Origin: an uncultured Dehalococcoidia bacterium
GTDB lineage: Bacteria > Chloroflexota > Dehalococcoidia > Lucifugimonadales > UBA3495
Length of the DNA stretch: 14,461 nucleotides
Reading direction: 5' to 3'
Assembly (NCBI GenBank): GCA_950072105.1
Contig: CATMOE010000075.1
Location: 1 to 14,461, forward strand
The position numbers and the translations under genes are program-made. Numbering within the stretch: position 1 is the first letter of the stretch; each line of letters begins with the position of its first letter. Shown in pieces: positions 1,275 through 14,461 of the stretch. Under the pieces are notes generated by a model that saw only the letters and a program-made list of their open reading frames with translations, did not search any database and was not told the DNA's origin.

Positions 1275-2417
1275 ATGGACCTGGGTCTCAGTGAGGTCCA
1301 GCAAATGCTGAAGAGCAGCGCCCAGGAGTTTCTTTCTCAGGAGTGTCCGCTGACCTTGGTTCGGGCCATGGAGGAAGACCCTATGGGTAATAACGACCAA
1401 CTATGGCGGCAGATAGCCGGCTTGGGTTGGACCGGCGTGGCCTTCCCCGAATCCTACGGCGGTACCGGCGGACACTTTCTGGATCTGGCGGTTCTCTTGG
1501 AAGAGATGGGCCGGGCGCTGTGTCCAAGCCCCTTCTTTTCCACGGTCGTCTTGGGCGGTTTGACCGTCTTGGACGCGGGAAGCGATGCCCAGAAACAGGA
1601 CATCGTAACTAAGATTTGCGACGGTCAGTTGCTGATGACTCTGGCGTTGACCGAGCAAACCGCTACCTACGAGCCGTGGGGAATCGAAACCGTGGCCACT
1701 CGTCAAGGGGACAACTTCGTCATTGACGGTACCAAGTTGTTTGTGCCCGACGCCCACGTGGCCGACCTGTTGCTGGTCGCGGCCCGTACGTCGGACGAAG
1801 CGGACCCGTCTCAGGGAATAACCCTGTTCCTCGTGCCTTCAGGAACCTCCGGGCTTACGGTTACTCAGCTAAGCACCATCTCGGCCGACAGGCAGTGCGA
1901 GGTGATATTGAACCAGGTGTCGGTTCCCGCATCGTCGGTGCTGGGTGAAGTAGACCAAGGATGGCCGGTTTTGCAACGCGCTCTGGAACGAGCCACCGCT
2001 GGCAAGTGCATAGAGATGTTAGGCGGGGCCTCGGCTGTCCTGGATATGACCGTCGAATATGTGAAAGGACGGACCCAATTCGGGCGTCCCATCGGCAGCT
2101 TCCAGGCAGTGCAACATCACTGCGCGAATATGGCCACCGACGTTGAAGGCAGCCGGGTCGTAGCTTACCAGGCGGCCTGGAAGGTGTCGGAAGGAGATCC
2201 CGCCCAGCGTGAGGTTTCAGTGGCGAAAGCATGGGTAAGCGCGGCGTATCAACGAGTTTGCTCCTTGGCCCACCAAACCCACGGAGCTATCGGGTTCACC
2301 AAGGAGCACGATCTGCAGCTATTTACCCGGCGGGCAAAGGTGCAGGAACTGAACTACGGCGATGTTAATTTTCACAAGGACGTGGCTCTGCAGCATATGG
2401 AGCGCCAACTGATCTAG
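1275..2417 (+). CDS. Acyl-CoA dehydrogenase (FadE27/28-like, probable subunit of a heteromeric ACAD)
   Basis: AGGAGG RBS. Motifs GTKLFVPDA, RTQFGRPIGSFQAVQH and HGAIGFTKEHDLQLFTRRAK. Confidence 0.92.
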   Translation: MDLGLSEVQQMLKSSAQEFLSQECPLTLVRAMEEDPMGNNDQLWRQIAGLGWTGVAFPESYGGTGGHFLDLAVLLEEMGRALCPSPFFSTVVLGGLTVLDAGSDAQKQDIVTKICDGQLLMTLALTEQTATYEPWGIETVATRQGDNFVIDGTKLFVPDAHVADLLLVAARTSDEADPSQGITLFLVPSGTSGLTVTQLSTISADRQCEVILNQVSVPASSVLGEVDQGWPVLQRALERATAGKCIEMLGGASAVLDMTVEYVKGRTQFGRPIGSFQAVQHHCANMATDVEGSRVVAYQAAWKVSEGDPAQREVSVAKAWVSAAYQRVCSLAHQTHGAIGFTKEHDLQLFTRRAKVQELNYGDVNFHKDVALQHMERQLI

Positions 2418-2475
2418 CACCGCGCCGGCGCTAACCCGAATCTCCTGCAGCGGCCGATATCGGAGATCAGCCTTA

Positions 2476-2823
2476 ATGAGCACCAGCGAATGTATTTTCT
2501 GCGGTATGGCGCGGGACTCCGGCCATAAAGCTCCCATCTACCGCGACGAGCGGGTTTTTGTTCTTAGGGACATCAACCCAAAGGCCCCGACCCACCTGCT
2601 CATAATCCCCAATATGCACCTGCCGTCACTGGCTTACATCGGCCCCGGTCAGGTCCCAATAATGGGCCACTTATTCGTGGTGGCCGAGGAGATGGCCCGC
2701 CGAGAGGGGGTAACCTTGAGCGGATACCGGCTGGTGTTGAACCAGGGCCCGGATTCGGGGCAGGAGATTGAACACCTTCACTTGCACCTCCTGGGAGGGC
2801 AATCGTTGGGGAATATGGGCTGA
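2476..2823 (+). CDS. Histidine triad (HIT/HinT-like) nucleotide-binding protein
   Basis: N-terminal CIFC, DINPKAPTHLLIIP and the HLHLHLLGG triad. GGAG RBS. Confidence 0.95.
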   Translation: MSTSECIFCGMARDSGHKAPIYRDERVFVLRDINPKAPTHLLIIPNMHLPSLAYIGPGQVPIMGHLFVVAEEMARREGVTLSGYRLVLNQGPDSGQEIEHLHLHLLGGQSLGNMG

Positions 2824-3422
2824 TGGATCCCGCCGCGGTTCAGCGGCGGGTCGATCGATTGCCCGCCGGACTTCAGTCCCACATCTACCGGGTTGTTGAG
2901 ATTGCCCGGGAATTGGCGGTCTGCCACGGTATCGACCAAGAACAGGCAGCCCTGGCGGCATTGGCCCATGATGTGGCCAGAGCCATGACGGATGGTGAAT
3001 TGTTGCGCCGGGCCGCGGGCATGGGACTACCCATCGGGGTGGTTGACCGGCGGGTGCCCATACTTCTTCACGGACCGGTGGGCGCCGAGATCCTCCAACA
3101 AGAAGCCGGACTAACCGACATTTCTATTTATAAGGCCGTGTACTGGCACACCACAGCCAACCCGGACTTGGATGAGTTGGGCAAAGTGGTGTTCATAGCC
3201 GACAAACTGGACCCGGCGAAGATTGACTCCTATCCCTATTTGCCACAGATCCGCCAGATGGCATTCCAGGACATGGACCGGGCGATATTGCATTTTCTAA
3301 CGCGGCAGGCGATGGACCGGCTCAATCGGGGTGAGTTGGTCCACCCGGTGATGGTGGAGACTCGAAACGCCTTGCTGGCAGCTTCTGGGGTGCCCGAGAA
3401 TCCAGCCGGAGCCGTCGAATGA
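2823..3422 (+). CDS. yqeK: HD-domain hydrolase, YqeK-like (symmetrical Ap4A hydrolase family)
   Basis: H...V, AHDVAR, LLHGPVGA, HTT and IADKLDP motifs. TGATG stop/start overlap with the HIT gene. Confidence 0.8.
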   Translation: MDPAAVQRRVDRLPAGLQSHIYRVVEIARELAVCHGIDQEQAALAALAHDVARAMTDGELLRRAAGMGLPIGVVDRRVPILLHGPVGAEILQQEAGLTDISIYKAVYWHTTANPDLDELGKVVFIADKLDPAKIDSYPYLPQIRQMAFQDMDRAILHFLTRQAMDRLNRGELVHPVMVETRNALLAASGVPENPAGAVE

Positions 3423-3520
3423 AATCCAAGAGGCGCACCTGATCGCCAAGAATCGCATCTAAGGATATAGACGCAGCCGTATCCGAGTTGGGCCGGTAGA
3501 AAACAAGAAGAGGTTAACCG

Positions 3521-3835
3521 ATGCGTGTAACCCTGGGCGAAGAAGCAGTGATCCACATCCAAAAGAAGGGGGGACGGGCTGTCGTTGATCTGATCAGCAT
3601 GTCATCTTGAGCCGGTTCCACTGTGGAGGTGTCGGTCGACACCAACGTTGCACGGCGAAACATCTTGAATTACCGGACGGTTAAGCAGGACGGTGTAGAG
3701 TTGCTGGTCTCACCCGACCTGGCTCGCCATTCCGAAAATCTTCACATCAAGCTGAACCAGTTCCTCTTTTTCCGGCACCTTAAAGCCGTGGTGGAGCTAA
3801 CCAACGGTGTGGTGTTGGGAGCGCGGGCGATGTAA
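3521..3835 (+). CDS. Probable 104-aa selenoprotein, CC/Se-motif (HesB-like) family, Sec at TGA 3608-3610
   Basis: GAGG RBS before ATG 3521. MRVTLGEEAVIHIQKKGGRAVVDLISMSS-TGA-AGST continues in frame into the listed 3623-3835 ORF. SECIS-like hairpin at 3628-3643. Confidence 0.75.
3628..3643 (+). promoter_or_regulatory. Candidate bacterial SECIS hairpin
   Basis: GGTGTC-GGTC-GACACC: a 6-bp stem with a G-starting loop beginning 23 nt after the TGA. Confidence 0.6.
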
Positions 3836-3875
3836 CCATCCCGCCGGACGGACTTTATACATAACCCAGATTTAA

Positions 3876-3911
3876 GAAAAGACCCCGGCGCGACCCCGCC
3901 GGGGTCTTTTC
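3876..3911. terminator. Rho-independent terminator, potentially bidirectional
   Basis: Perfect 15-bp inverted repeat GAAAAGACCCCGGCG / CGCCGGGGTCTTTTC with a 6-nt loop. Confidence 0.9.
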
Positions 3912-4094
3912 ATTGTGGCGTCTGTCACTGGGCTTGGATAGGCCGTTAATTCAGCATGCGCATCCGGTAAAGCAGCTTCGCCTCGCACGTCTTCAGGCGT
4001 CGCCTCTGCTATACCGCACCGGCCAACGGCGGCCCTTGATTCTCCAGGTATTTGGTTTTTCGTCTTGGGAGTTTCGGAATGGAGTAGAGGTGGA

Positions 4095-5081
4095 ATGATG
4101 CGCTTCGGAATTAATCTGGGTGGCGGAAATCTGCTTGAGGAACCCAGGGAAGAGGCCTTGGCAGGCCGGCTGGAGAAGGCTCGACTAGCCGGCGCCTTGG
4201 GGTACCATTCCCAGTGGACCGGGGCGGGCTATCTGAACAACGACTTTCACTCCATGTTGCTGCTTGCCCGAGCCGCCGCCGAAGCTCCGGACCTGGAACT
4301 CGGCATGGTTTCTTTGCTTCCGCTATACCATCCGGTTGAGGTCGCCGAGCAGGTTGCCACGTTGGACGTGATATGCGGCGGCAGATTCGTTTTGGTCCCG
4401 GCATTGGGTTGGCGGGACTTCCAGTTCAACGCCTTCGGCGTGCCCAAAGAGGAGCGATTGTCCCGGTTCCGTGAGGTTATGGTGGTGATGAAGAAGCTTT
4501 GGTCCCAAGAGCAGGTCACTCACCACGGCAAGCACTTTTACATGGATGATGTTCCAGGGGCCGGTGGTTTGCTGCAAGGACCCCAGCCTAAGATGTACAT
4601 CGCAGCCAACCTGGATGTTGGGGTTGCTAGAGCGGCCCGGGAAGGTGACGGTTGGCCGGTAAGCTCCCGGGCCACTTTGCCGACCATCGAAAGACAGGTA
4701 AAGCTTTACCGGGAGGCTGCCGGGAAGGCTGGCAAAGTAGGCTACATCTCCGCGTGGCGGGAGATGTTCGTGGCCGAGACCCGCCAGCAGGCCGTGGACA
4801 TCGTTCGGCCACACGTGGAATGGCTTTATCGGGATCGGGCCGCCTTGGGGCATAATCAGGAATTGCCTGAGGCTGATCGCATCGACGTTTCCTTCGAGCA
4901 GGTGCTGGATGGGAGGTTCATCATCGGCAGCCCCTCTGAATGCATGAAAGAGATCAAGAGACACCAGGAGTTGGGCGTTGAGGAGCTGGTGCTGCGTTGC
5001 CAGTGGCCGGGGATGCCTAATGAAGACTCGCTAAAGGCCGTAGAGCTTTTCGGACGGGAAGTGCTTCACCACTTTGGGTAA
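4095..5081 (+). CDS. LLM class (luciferase-like) flavin-dependent oxidoreductase
   Basis: GAGGT RBS before ATGATG (start 4095 or 4098). Motifs LPLYHPVEVAEQVATLDVICGGR and IIGSPSEC. Confidence 0.92.
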   Translation: MMRFGINLGGGNLLEEPREEALAGRLEKARLAGALGYHSQWTGAGYLNNDFHSMLLLARAAAEAPDLELGMVSLLPLYHPVEVAEQVATLDVICGGRFVLVPALGWRDFQFNAFGVPKEERLSRFREVMVVMKKLWSQEQVTHHGKHFYMDDVPGAGGLLQGPQPKMYIAANLDVGVARAAREGDGWPVSSRATLPTIERQVKLYREAAGKAGKVGYISAWREMFVAETRQQAVDIVRPHVEWLYRDRAALGHNQELPEADRIDVSFEQVLDGRFIIGSPSECMKEIKRHQELGVEELVLRCQWPGMPNEDSLKAVELFGREVLHHFG

Positions 5082-6183: not shown

Positions 6184-6195
6184 GAACACATGTTT
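6184..6195. promoter_or_regulatory. LexA box 3 (one mismatch) in the 5' leader
   Basis: GAAC-ACAT-GTTT immediately before the GGGAGG RBS. Confidence 0.7.
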
Positions 6196-6207
6196 GGGAG
6201 GCGGGAA

Positions 6208-6537
6208 ATGTCCAACGCAACAGCGGTCAAAACTATGACGGACCAAGGCCCGGAATACTACCATTACGAAGACACCGGATGCGAAGTTTCGCCGTCCTGC
6301 CTCACCTGCCCATTGCCGCAGTGCAAGTATGACGACCCCGTGTGGTTTCAACGGCACCGCCGGTTGGCCCGGGACTTGAAGGTCTGGAGCACCATGCAAT
6401 CCGAGAGGTTGACGGCGGATGAAGCGGCGCAACGCTTTTCGGTAACGGTGCGGACCATCTTCCGGATCACACGCCGCTGCCGGGACGCCATCATGGAGGC
6501 TGACGGTGAGGAATTACTAGCCCTGGCCGCGGACTAG
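6208..6537 (+). CDS. Uncharacterised Cys4 metal-binding + helix-turn-helix protein, putatively SOS-regulated
   Basis: GGAGG RBS favours ATG 6208 over 6190. Contains CEVSPSCLTCPLPQC and the HTH-like LTADEAAQRFSVTVRTIFRI. Confidence 0.8.
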   Translation: MSNATAVKTMTDQGPEYYHYEDTGCEVSPSCLTCPLPQCKYDDPVWFQRHRRLARDLKVWSTMQSERLTADEAAQRFSVTVRTIFRITRRCRDAIMEADGEELLALAAD

Positions 6538-7907: not shown

Positions 7908-8144
7908 TCAACTGCCTACGGCCACGCAGGTAACCGTCCGGACCACACCGTCGACGGTGTGGATGTTGTCGGTTACCACGTTGCCAACCACCGTCATGTC
8001 CGCGCCGGTGACCACGGTAATGATGTCGTAGGGGCCGGTCACCACGTCGACGGATTCGATGTGTTCCAGACTCCGCAGGGTGTTGGCCACATCCCTGGTC
8101 TTGCCTACGGCGGTTTCCACTAGGAGATACGCTCTGGTCGTCAT
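7908..8144 (-). CDS. Stand-alone Lrp/AsnC ligand-binding (RAM) domain protein
   Basis: 78 aa with AYLLVET, VTGPYDII and GVVRTVT. No HTH domain. Confidence 0.9.
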   Translation of the reverse strand: MTTRAYLLVETAVGKTRDVANTLRSLEHIESVDVVTGPYDIITVVTGADMTVVGNVVTDNIHTVDGVVRTVTCVAVGS

Positions 8145-9030: not shown

Positions 9031-9420
9031 CTAACCGGGGTCTAACTTGCGGAATTCGCCGGTTTCCTGAACATCAACCGGGTACCCCTCGATCATGGGA
9101 GGTATCTGACCCATCAGTTCATCGGACTTCTTTATAACGAACACCCTGATGCAGGGTTCGCCGTCGCATAAGCCCTGGGCTGTCCCCACCACGCCGGACA
9201 TGGTCATAAGGCTATCGGTGTACTCTTGGAGTATCTCTTCAAGGCTTTTGTTCGGCATCGACGGATCTTCCTGTCCAATTTCGGCCTGTTCGCGGCTACA
9301 GGACACCATTGTAGCGGCGAACCAAAGGAAAAGGAGCAAACCCAAGATGGCCGGAACACGGGACTTTTCCGCGAAACTTCTTTTATGCCTGGGTGGAGAG
9401 CCTTCCTGGGTCGCCGCCAT
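9031..9420 (-). CDS. Putative lipoprotein homologous to the prodomain of the adjacent protease (start uncertain: 9420 or 9453)
   Basis: Basic N-region, hydrophobic stretch, then MVS|C lipobox-like site. The domain reads GVVGTAQGL..CIRVFV..IP..IEGYPVDVQETGEF. Confidence 0.75.
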   Translation of the reverse strand: MAATQEGSPPRHKRSFAEKSRVPAILGLLLFLWFAATMVSCSREQAEIGQEDPSMPNKSLEEILQEYTDSLMTMSGVVGTAQGLCDGEPCIRVFVIKKSDELMGQIPPMIEGYPVDVQETGEFRKLDPG

Positions 9421-9464
9421 GTCAGATGAGGACCTTCTTATGCAAGCTGTCACGGCGTCCGCTC

Positions 9465-9500
9465 AGAAAAGAGAGGGGGCCACCCATCGGCGGCCCCCTC
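9465..9500 (-). terminator. Rho-independent terminator downstream of the protease gene
   Basis: Minus strand reads GAGGGGGCCGCC-GATG-GGTGGCCCCCTC-TCTTTTCT. Confidence 0.8.
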
Positions 9501-9521
9501 ATACCAACCTAGATCAACCGC

Positions 9522-11060
9522 CTATCTGGCAAAGGTGTCGGGATTGTCCGCATCCAAGGCCGTATTCCAGACGAGGGTGGCGTGAGTCAGGCCGGTGACC
9601 TGCGCCTCGTAAAGGCCCATGGGTGCCCCGCCGACCAGAGAGAACTTGATACTACCGTTGCTGCCGGTATCCCCACCGAAGTTGGAATAGCAGGTGTCGA
9701 TACTACAGTCGTCGATCTGATTGTTGCCGCTGGAATCGTGGGTGAGCGTGGCATTGACGTGGGCTGCCGCTACCGGGCTATCGGCGCCTGTCAGAGCGCC
9801 ATCACCGTCGGAGTCTTGCCGGATTTTGATAATAAACTGCAAGTTCTTCTTTTTGGAACTCCAGGAGATGTCGTACACTCCCATATCCCCTGTGCTTGGC
9901 GGGGGAGTAGAGGTCGGCGTCGGCGTAGCCGTGGGATCTGGTGTCGGCGTAGGTGTCGCGTCGGGGTCCGGCGTAGCCGTCGGGACCGGTGTAGCCGTCG
10001 GGTCTAGTGTAGGGGTCGGAGAGGGAGCGGATCCTTCGCCATCGATCATGACGCCGAACTCTTCGAGCACCAGGTCGATGCGATTAGCGATCGCCATCTT
10101 GCCGGTCGATGTCCCAGCAAATAGGAGGCCGACCGGTTTCCGGTCGTCGGCCCCACCTTCGACCACTAGCAGCGAGCCGGAGTCGCCTCCTTGAAGGTAC
10201 CTGGGCTTTCGAGACTCAACGATGATTTGATCTACGAACCTTGCCGTGTCGGAATCATAGCCGATATTAAGCGTGGCGTTGATGCCGGTGATTATTCCAT
10301 TGGTGGTCAATCCGGTGGTGCGTCCGTATTTCTGGACTTTCTGGTTTAAGGTTGCCGATACGATTTCCGACTTGGGAGTCCCATAGCCGTCGGACGGTGT
10401 GGCGTTACCCAAATCGCCGAGAGACGAAAGAGCGATCGCCGCGTCTATCTTGTTGTTGGCCAAGATGGGAAAAACGATGTCTTTGAAAGCGAAGAGCGTT
10501 CCGATGGTGTCTGCCGGAACACTGGCACCGTCGTAGGTTCCCGGTTGAATCACCTCGTCTCCGATATACGCCAGGTTCTCGTTGGCATATACGTGGTTAT
10601 TAGTCAGGGCGTAGATCGTCCCGTTGCTATCTTTAACTCTGCTTCCGAAAGTGCCGGCAGTGATGGCAGGGTGGCCGGTTGAAACTCCAATGGGTACCGG
10701 CCTGTCCCACCGGTCCGTGGTGCTCTGGGTGCTTGGAATCAGAACGGGAGCCGAGACGCGGCCAAGAGCATTGATCGGACCGGTAACTTGCGCCACTATC
10801 TTGACGCCATCCTGCTCCTTGGGAATCCCCCCTACCCCTGACTTGGCGGTGAACACCCTTACTATCGCATTGCCCTCAGAGTCGAGCCCAACGGCGGTTC
10901 CAACAACATCCTTGTTGGAAAGTACCTTTTGGTTGACCTTTTCCTGAGCTCGCTTGGCGTTCTCTACGCCGTTCCCGTTGCCGCCTAACGCCGGAGACGC
11001 TGCCAGCGCCAGGAGCATTACCGCGACGACGATGGAAACCAACGACAATTTTTTCTTCAA
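9522..11060 (-). CDS. Secreted trypsin-like (S1, Nal1-like) serine protease: signal peptide, prodomain, catalytic domain, Pro/Thr linker, C-terminal beta-rich domain
   Basis: GGGAG RBS 8 nt before TTG 11060 gives the signal peptide MKKKLSLVSIVVAVMLLALAASPALG. Catalytic triad motifs are TNNHV, IDAAIA and GGDSGS. Confidence 0.87.
   Translation of the reverse strand: MKKKLSLVSIVVAVMLLALAASPALGGNGNGVENAKRAQEKVNQKVLSNKDVVGTAVGLDSEGNAIVRVFTAKSGVGGIPKEQDGVKIVAQVTGPINALGRVSAPVLIPSTQSTTDRWDRPVPIGVSTGHPAITAGTFGSRVKDSNGTIYALTNNHVYANENLAYIGDEVIQPGTYDGASVPADTIGTLFAFKDIVFPILANNKIDAAIALSSLGDLGNATPSDGYGTPKSEIVSATLNQKVQKYGRTTGLTTNGIITGINATLNIGYDSDTARFVDQIIVESRKPRYLQGGDSGSLLVVEGGADDRKPVGLLFAGTSTGKMAIANRIDLVLEEFGVMIDGEGSAPSPTPTLDPTATPVPTATPDPDATPTPTPDPTATPTPTSTPPPSTGDMGVYDISWSSKKKNLQFIIKIRQDSDGDGALTGADSPVAAAHVNATLTHDSSGNNQIDDCSIDTCYSNFGGDTGSNGSIKFSLVGGAPMGLYEAQVTGLTHATLVWNTALDADNPDTFAR
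9898..10030 (-). repeat. Low-complexity Pro/Thr/Asp linker coding repeat
   Basis: Encodes APSPTPTLDPTATPVPTATPDPDATPTPTPDPTATPTPTSTPPP. Confidence 0.9.
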
Positions 11061-11259
11061 CTGCTCAACTCCCGAATGCCAGGTAAGGAGATAGCCACTC
11101 ATCCAGACTAACAAGAAGGGTGTATTTGAAGTCAATTACTCTGAACGCCCGGCTGGGTCCATTTTAGCGGTCAAACCGGACCGCGGTTGTGGACTAGATG
11201 GACCCTTACGGTTCCCCGGCCTTCGCCTTTGGTCCCGTTAGTTCCAACCCCACTTGGAA

Positions 11260-14114: not shown

Positions 14115-14351
14115 ATGCGAATCGCCGTCGCCGGGGACCACGCCGGATTCGAGCTGAAAGCAATACTAATACCTTGGCTCTGGTCGGCGGGACACGAAGT
14201 AGAGGATTTGGGCGCCCACAGCCTTGATCCGGAAGACGACTATCCCGACTTCGCTTTCATGGTGGCTGATAGCGTTCGGTCTAAAAGGGCCGAACGAGGT
14301 GTTGTTGTATGCGGTAGCGGGGTCGGTGCTTCGGTTGCCGCCAACAAAGTG
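14115..14351 (+). CDS. rpiB: Ribose-5-phosphate isomerase B (RpiB/LacAB family), N-terminal 79 codons only; missing from the ORF track
   Basis: AGGAG RBS. MRIAVAGDHAGFELK...DDYPDFA...CGSGVGASVAANKV; family resemblance stops after codon 79. Confidence 0.9.
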
Positions 14352-14461
14352 GCTTGGCGCTCTTTGAGAGCCTCAATTTCTGACTCACGAACGGATGGGT
14401 TCCCGTCCTTTAATGCTTCCAGACGCTTGAGCTCGCGTTGCAGTGTCTCACTGCTTTTTTT
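14352..14461 (-). other. rapA: Fragment resembling the C-terminus of RNA polymerase-associated protein RapA (HepA)
   Basis: Minus strand reads KKSSETLQRELKRLEALKDGNPSVRESEIEALKERQ, similar to the recalled RapA C-terminal pattern ELxRLEALxxVNPxxRxxE. Confidence 0.6.

Follow-up and report, generated by a model that had tools for sequence, protein, structure and literature searches.

Does the TGA at codon 30 of the reading frame at positions 3521..3835 (+ strand) end a short gene, or does it specify selenocysteine (Sec) in a longer one? A preliminary description of this stretch of 14,461 nt (the window, meaning the whole of the DNA that was analysed) had read the frame as the gene of a 104-aa selenoprotein, and that reading is now supported by the conservation of the TGA, the occurrence of Cys in distant homologues, the sel genes of the genome and a covarying hairpin. 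We predict with near certainty that the UGA at codon 30 is recoded to selenocysteine. The best explanation as a whole, to which we give a probability of roughly 60%, combines this recoding with a Cys-free protein of the NF041239 (CC/Se) family that has a predicted IscA/SufA fold and would act through one exposed selenol.

Reading frame and the in-frame TGA

The layout of the frame is as originally described: it opens with ATG at 3521, runs for 29 codons to the TGA at 3608..3610 (+ strand), the predicted selenocysteine codon, and continues through 74 sense codons to TAA at 3833..3835. The Shine–Dalgarno-like run AAGAGGT (3508..3514, + strand) precedes the ATG with a spacing of 6 nt. Under translation table 11 the ORF after the TGA begins at GTG 3623 and has 70 aa; as had been claimed, no Shine–Dalgarno-like run lies directly upstream of this GTG, judged by eye. 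Beyond the TAA, a perfectly paired 15-bp hairpin flanked by A and T tails (3876..3911, no strand assigned; fold z −4.89), picked up in a terminator scan, is probably the intrinsic terminator that closes the selenoprotein gene. A search of positions 2300–4200 gave no match to a sigma-70 promoter, and Rfam gave none in the 14,461-nt window. Parts of the locus are present as contigs in RNA runs X14 and X15, and one RNA-run contig extends from the end of the upstream yqeK gene past the TGA, which by itself proves neither a single transcript nor expression.

Both sides of the TGA are under purifying selection, as the changes relative to locus L053 (94% identical) indicate: before the TGA, codons 2–29 carry 14 synonymous changes against 3 non-synonymous ones (pN/pS 0.07); after it, codons 42–99 carry about 15 against about 6 (pN/pS 0.13). 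The TGA itself was kept in frame in all 69 matches found among 401 genomes of the order, one of which carries an additional TAG, and in 28 of 28 matches from 201 genomes of the order, a sample that overlaps the larger set. At the level of the class, matches came from 17 of 401 genomes; the TGA was present in 17 of the 18, and the one without it is the latter half of a copy broken by a frameshift. Among translated loci, TGA occupies the column in 121 of 121, many of them close kin; five repeated loci, and four family members of the CC type that have no TGA, are not counted here. These relatives are assigned to Dehalococcoidia/Chloroflexota, one of them to SAR202, and there is one actinobacterial copy. 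Distribution is patchy, with the gene in 69 of the 401 order genomes and tRNA-Sec in 134 of 151.

Two copies are broken, one by an extra in-frame TAG (L046, genome G007) and one by a frameshift (L144, genome G514). G007 gave no tRNA-Sec match, yet its selA and selB are intact, so we rejected this genome as a demonstration of gene loss following the loss of selenocysteine.

Could the TGA be a sequencing error, a lesion in a pseudogene or a Trp codon, or could the product be just the 70-aa ORF? The broken copies in G007 and G514 would fit such a view, as would the databases, whose records are mostly the 70-aa fragment and which contain 11 full-length entries with Trp at the column. However, positions 3608–3610 are bridged without change by contigs from three studies, those of DNA runs X2 and X4 (either of which may have yielded the assembly) and of RNA run X14, codons 2–29 are under purifying selection, and the fragment alone scored only 19.7 bits against NF041239. 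The Trp entries were traced, where this could be tested, to gene calls made with an alternative code: genomic copies 98–99% identical to entry P0171 carry TGA, the frame of entry P0159 does not end at its own stop and extends into the following gene, and in P0040 each of the two TGA columns that mark the two-Sec type is filled by Trp. We therefore consider this whole group of readings largely refuted and very improbable. Because gene callers cut the gene to a 70-residue fragment, a widespread marine Dehalococcoidia selenoprotein is mis-annotated in most records.

As had been anticipated, homologues align across the TGA with TGA or Cys at the column (TGA in 121 of 121 loci, Cys in 7 proteins). 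Altogether, the residues in 24 full-length database homologues were 11 Trp, 7 Cys, 5 Arg and 1 Gly. Arg and Gly, the residues in entries P0039, P0041, P0168, P0169, P0172 and P0048, are one base away from TGA; these entries may be errors of a kind that gene callers favour, or may represent a lineage that lost selenocysteine. When one of them was searched against 401 genomes, TGA stood in every one of the 12 top genomic matches. None of the outcomes that the preliminary description had named as fatal, namely a residue other than Cys in homologues, TGG or TGC in the reads, or a genome devoid of selenocysteine machinery, held at the DNA level.

A SECIS-type hairpin and the selenocysteine machinery

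Downstream of the TGA lies a bacterial SECIS-type hairpin, GGTGTC-GGTC-GACACC (3628..3643, + strand), which overlaps the codons for V-S-V-D-T. Its 6-bp stem (3628–3633 and 3638–3643) encloses the loop GGTC (3634–3637), so that the G-starting loop and the distance of 23 nt from the TGA are both as first reported; in isolation the hairpin has a folding energy of −8.1 kcal/mol. It appeared in three of three folds of the region, and folding z-scores against shuffled sequence were not significant (0.42, −0.46 and −0.64). An equally strict hairpin follows 1.05% of the genome's TGA triplets (1,187 of 113,224), which sets the chance level.

That the hairpin exceeds chance is argued by its conservation at 116 of 121 homologue loci (a clean stem is absent in 5) and by covariation. 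Among the loci listed, its distance to the UGA is 20 or 23 nt. Over 54 of 75 distinct sequences, pairing holds in 97.8% of cells; one pair in the stem alternates between G-C (38) and A-U (14), and the pair flanking the loop between G-C (41), C-G (9) and A-U (2). The covariation score was reached by none of 500 shuffles, and controls slid along the sequence paired at 24–59%. These counts are taken over related sequences, and kinship inflates them so that the number of independent events is overstated. Both switches fall at synonymous third positions and leave V-S-V-D intact, so they are not driven by the protein. Most Cys forms depart from V-S-V-D-T, with AIDT, ALDT, ATDT or VSVST in its place.

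According to a 2026 review, bacterial SECIS elements have a loop of 3–9 nt with G in one of its first two positions, a stem of 4–16 bp, a distance of 16–37 nt from the UGA and an energy of at most −7.5 kcal/mol (PMC13188914). The hairpin at 3628..3643 lies within all of these limits, as evaluated with our own script and not with bSECISearch. It shares with the consensus of that review the short loop (4 nt) with an early G, the stem (6 bp here) and the spacing (23 nt here), whereas its loop has the form N-GU-N', with complementary and covarying outer bases, and is shorter than the usual pattern (PMC13188914). Unlike the consensus, the hairpin here also fixes the peptide V-S-V-D-T.

The genome contains selA, selB, selC and selD, all of which the preliminary description had asked for. 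SelA matched with an E value of 2e-134 and SelB with 351.6 bits; the SelD gene has its own TGA and a hairpin with a GGT loop; and a tRNA-Sec with a TCA anticodon is present. By analogy with established bacterial selenocysteine biology, SelB–tRNA(Sec) would bind the hairpin 23 nt downstream and Sec would be inserted at codon 30.

A scan of the same genome returned many more candidates in which an in-frame TGA and a hairpin lie within a long frame (C27:25828, C21:9968, C25:38051, C13:61227, C10:63487, C1:158042, C16:54418, C22:32919 and C30:41618 among them), with motif types that include CUxxC, YTUPPF, CRFU and several DUGSC types. This suggests a large candidate selenoproteome. Selenoprotein-rich Dehalococcoidia have been published before, with 46–49 selenoprotein genes in BSepDB (PMC13326102, Table 2), and since BSepDB covers GTDB genomes, orthologues of the present gene may be catalogued there.

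Gene neighbourhood

Upstream of the selenoprotein gene lie a HIT-family gene (2476..2823, + strand) and a gene for a YqeK-type HD Ap4A hydrolase (2823..3422, + strand), which ends in an ordinary TGA stop. They precede homologues at 58 and 61 of 125 loci, respectively, nearly all from one close lineage. We rejected a functional operon with the HIT gene and yqeK: the synteny is lineage-bound, genes are frequently inserted, and other lineages share no neighbours. No Fe–S assembly gene is found among the flanking genes in the window, and as far as the annotated neighbours go, gene context is without a functional clue.

At L055, L060 and their kin, variable pairs of small genes (about 95 aa each, with no Pfam match) separate yqeK from the selenoprotein gene, and in this related lineage the interval looks like an insertion hotspot. 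Further along the window, a 115-aa ORF at 6190–6537 (+ strand) carries a cluster of four Cys (C-x5-C-x2-C-x4-C), after which comes a weak match to a helix-turn-helix; it is possibly a metal-binding regulator, and homologues of it occur near the selenoprotein gene at 5 of 125 loci. A 78-aa stand-alone Lrp/AsnC ligand-binding domain protein is encoded at 7908–8144 (− strand). The region 9031–11135 (− strand) encodes a secreted-looking protein of 537 aa with a match to the Nal1 C-terminal domain and a Thr/Pro linker, and then a 140-aa ORF with no Pfam match that by eye resembles the N-terminal part of the 537-aa protein. At the contig end, an rpiB-like ORF (14115–14461) matches positions 1–77 of 138 of the LacAB_rpiB profile and then passes into unrelated sequence, which would fit a truncated gene or an assembly join.

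Family, partner residues and predicted fold

The protein had been described as 'CC/Se (HesB-like)'. The first half of this label stands: NF041239, the CC/Se family (named Moor_selen_rel), is the only family match of the read-through protein, which scores a marginal 41.7 bits (cut-off 40) when Cys is put for Sec, and 34.9 bits with the stop left in. The match covers model positions 1–87 of 91, all 21 aligned relatives also match NF041239, and precomputed Pfam annotation places PF28096 on homologues. The second half does not stand in the classical sense: TIGR01911 (cut-off 66.35 bits) gave no match to the 104-aa protein at E values up to 1, its UxGP motif (PMC13188914) is absent, and only 1 of the 21 relatives matched NF038090, weakly. 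What the TIGR01911/NF038090 proteins share with the 104-aa protein is small size, a relationship to IscA and a Sec about 30 residues in. What the HesB-like selenoprotein does is described as unclear (PMC11097638).

With the NF041239 family the protein shares its length and the Sec/Cys column. In the 2026 review the family is entered with one Sec and the motif CxxU (PMC13188914), and the canonical members that we found carry CC or CU, whereas the 104-aa protein reads S-M-S-S-U, with neither CC/CU nor CxxU. As claimed, the 104-residue read-through product contains no Cys, and residue 30 is its sole Sec. By sequence, then, it is a divergent variant of the family and not a typical member.

The 'Ser-Ser-Sec' that had been singled out is not a distinctive motif, because the two residues before Sec vary among relatives (KG, ST, SN, IG, LG, VG). 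In the alignment, the notable change is instead Ser26 (codon AGC, 3596..3598, + strand), which stands in place of a partner Cys: in 78 of 120 loci a Cys lies three or four residues ahead of the Sec (−3 or −4). CU occurs in 2 loci, Cys elsewhere in 4, and 10, this gene included, have no Cys. Another 26 carry a His-rich C-terminal U/C-x-H tail (20 with Sec, 6 with Cys), and the upstream partner Cys is found in none of these 26, so the two types of partner are mutually exclusive. In 19 of the 20 two-Sec loci (L038, L039, L041, L043–L048, L050, L051, L132–L135 and L138–L142), the second TGA is followed after 17–22 nt by its own G-loop hairpin; in having two Sec they differ from the published family table, which gives one (PMC13188914). 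One further locus, L028 (genome G111), reads H-S-T-U-A-G-C, a UxxC type whose partner Cys lies downstream of the Sec. Literature searches, which for PMC12013277, PMC2398784 and PMC5029168 went by term through the main text, gave no account of Cys-free forms or of forms with two Sec.

On a 56-row tree (105 columns; many forks weak), the Cys-free label needs at least four changes; Cys-free forms occur in several other lineages and arose several times. Cys-free relatives at 50–55% identity (P0046, P0047 and P0049) argue that the state is probably long-lived and not recent decay. Repeated loss of the partner Cys is also what might be expected if the Sec had little catalytic role and the protein were a selenium sink, a read-through sensor or a protein-targeting adaptor with a replaceable residue 30. 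The Arg or Gly in six database proteins, the patchy distribution and an M. maripaludis hesB-like mutant unimpaired in nitrogen fixation (an unpublished observation cited in PMC11097638) would agree with this. However, across Chloroflexota and in the copy from an actinobacterium the column is otherwise invariably TGA or Cys, and this, together with the conserved hairpin, speaks for a residue whose chemistry matters; we consider a dispensable Sec improbable.

An AlphaFold model built with 21 sequences (pLDDT 88) predicts that the protein has the IscA/SufA fold. The best fold match was SufA (2d2a; Z 10.2, rmsd 2.3, 85 aligned residues), followed by IscA (1r94, Z 9.2; 1x0g, Z 8.9) and DsrR (2k4z, Z 8.2), and unrelated folds in the same comparison reached Z values of 3.4 or less. 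Sequence searches of Pfam and the PDB, including a PDB search with the alignment, gave no match. By DSSP assignment of the model, residue 30 falls in the predicted turn that joins strands E19–29 and E32–40. The selenol of Sec30 would be exposed at the tip of a β-hairpin, at roughly the place of the first Cys ligand in IscA, a register for which profile alignment to the genome's own IscA was non-significant (probability 3%) and fold searches gave ranges.

From this position, the selenol could form a transient selenyl-sulfide, diselenide or metal/Fe–S bond. Its second ligand would come from a further subunit, from a client protein or from some small thiol, whereas in relatives it would lie within the chain, as the Cys at −4/−3 or the His-rich Cys/Sec tail. 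We hold this part of our reading, action through a single exposed selenol with a second ligand from outside the chain, at about even odds.

A competing proposal keeps the selenoprotein and makes it a carrier of Fe–S or metal, either as an oligomer in which two to four subunits each contribute Sec30 or by donating one ligand in a heterocomplex with the canonical IscA/ErpA. The predicted fold is compatible with it, the His-rich U/C-x-H tail of relatives lies near the position of the IscA C-terminal Cys pair, and NfuA offers a precedent in its 'degenerated' A-type domain, a copy with fewer Cys ligands that acts in Fe–S delivery (PMC8593673). Against it, each chain offers one ligand where A-type carriers have three, the genome has a separate canonical IscA/ErpA gene with all three Cys present, and the flanking genes in the window lack Fe–S assembly functions. 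We regard such a carrier as unlikely, though less so than a dispensable Sec.

Returning to the single-selenol reading, the relatives form a natural series on the IscA fold: Sec with an upstream Cys, Sec with a His-rich tail that bears a second Sec or Cys and has its own SECIS, and Sec alone. We offer, as a speculative idea, that the Dehalococcoidia branch amounts to a natural mutagenesis series whose Sec-alone form might be a one-ligand, selenium-only protein for metal or Fe–S binding or for selenium hand-off, with its site between subunits or shared with a client. If this were true, the Sec-alone form would be a minimal system for learning what IscA-fold selenoproteins do. The NF041239 family is already known, and the Cys-free variant is useful rather than a new system: set beside the CxxxU, CxxU and two-Sec forms, it provides a comparison set for separating redox roles from metal/Fe–S binding.

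The closest structural counterparts are carriers of the A-type, namely IscA, SufA and ErpA (PF01521), with fold matches of Z 8.9–10.2 over 85–93 residues at an identity of 10–16%. In the model, their reactive residue occupies about the same turn as Sec30, whereas their C-terminal Cys pair is replaced in the 104-aa protein by a Cys-free β-hairpin. A-type carriers use three Cys ligands (PMC8593673), and the 104-aa protein has one Sec and no Cys; with one ligand per chain, it is unlikely to be a self-sufficient Fe–S carrier. The NfuA domain likewise has an IscA fold with fewer Cys ligands (PMC8593673), and DsrR is a fold match; the 104-aa protein differs from both in standing alone and in its predicted Sec.
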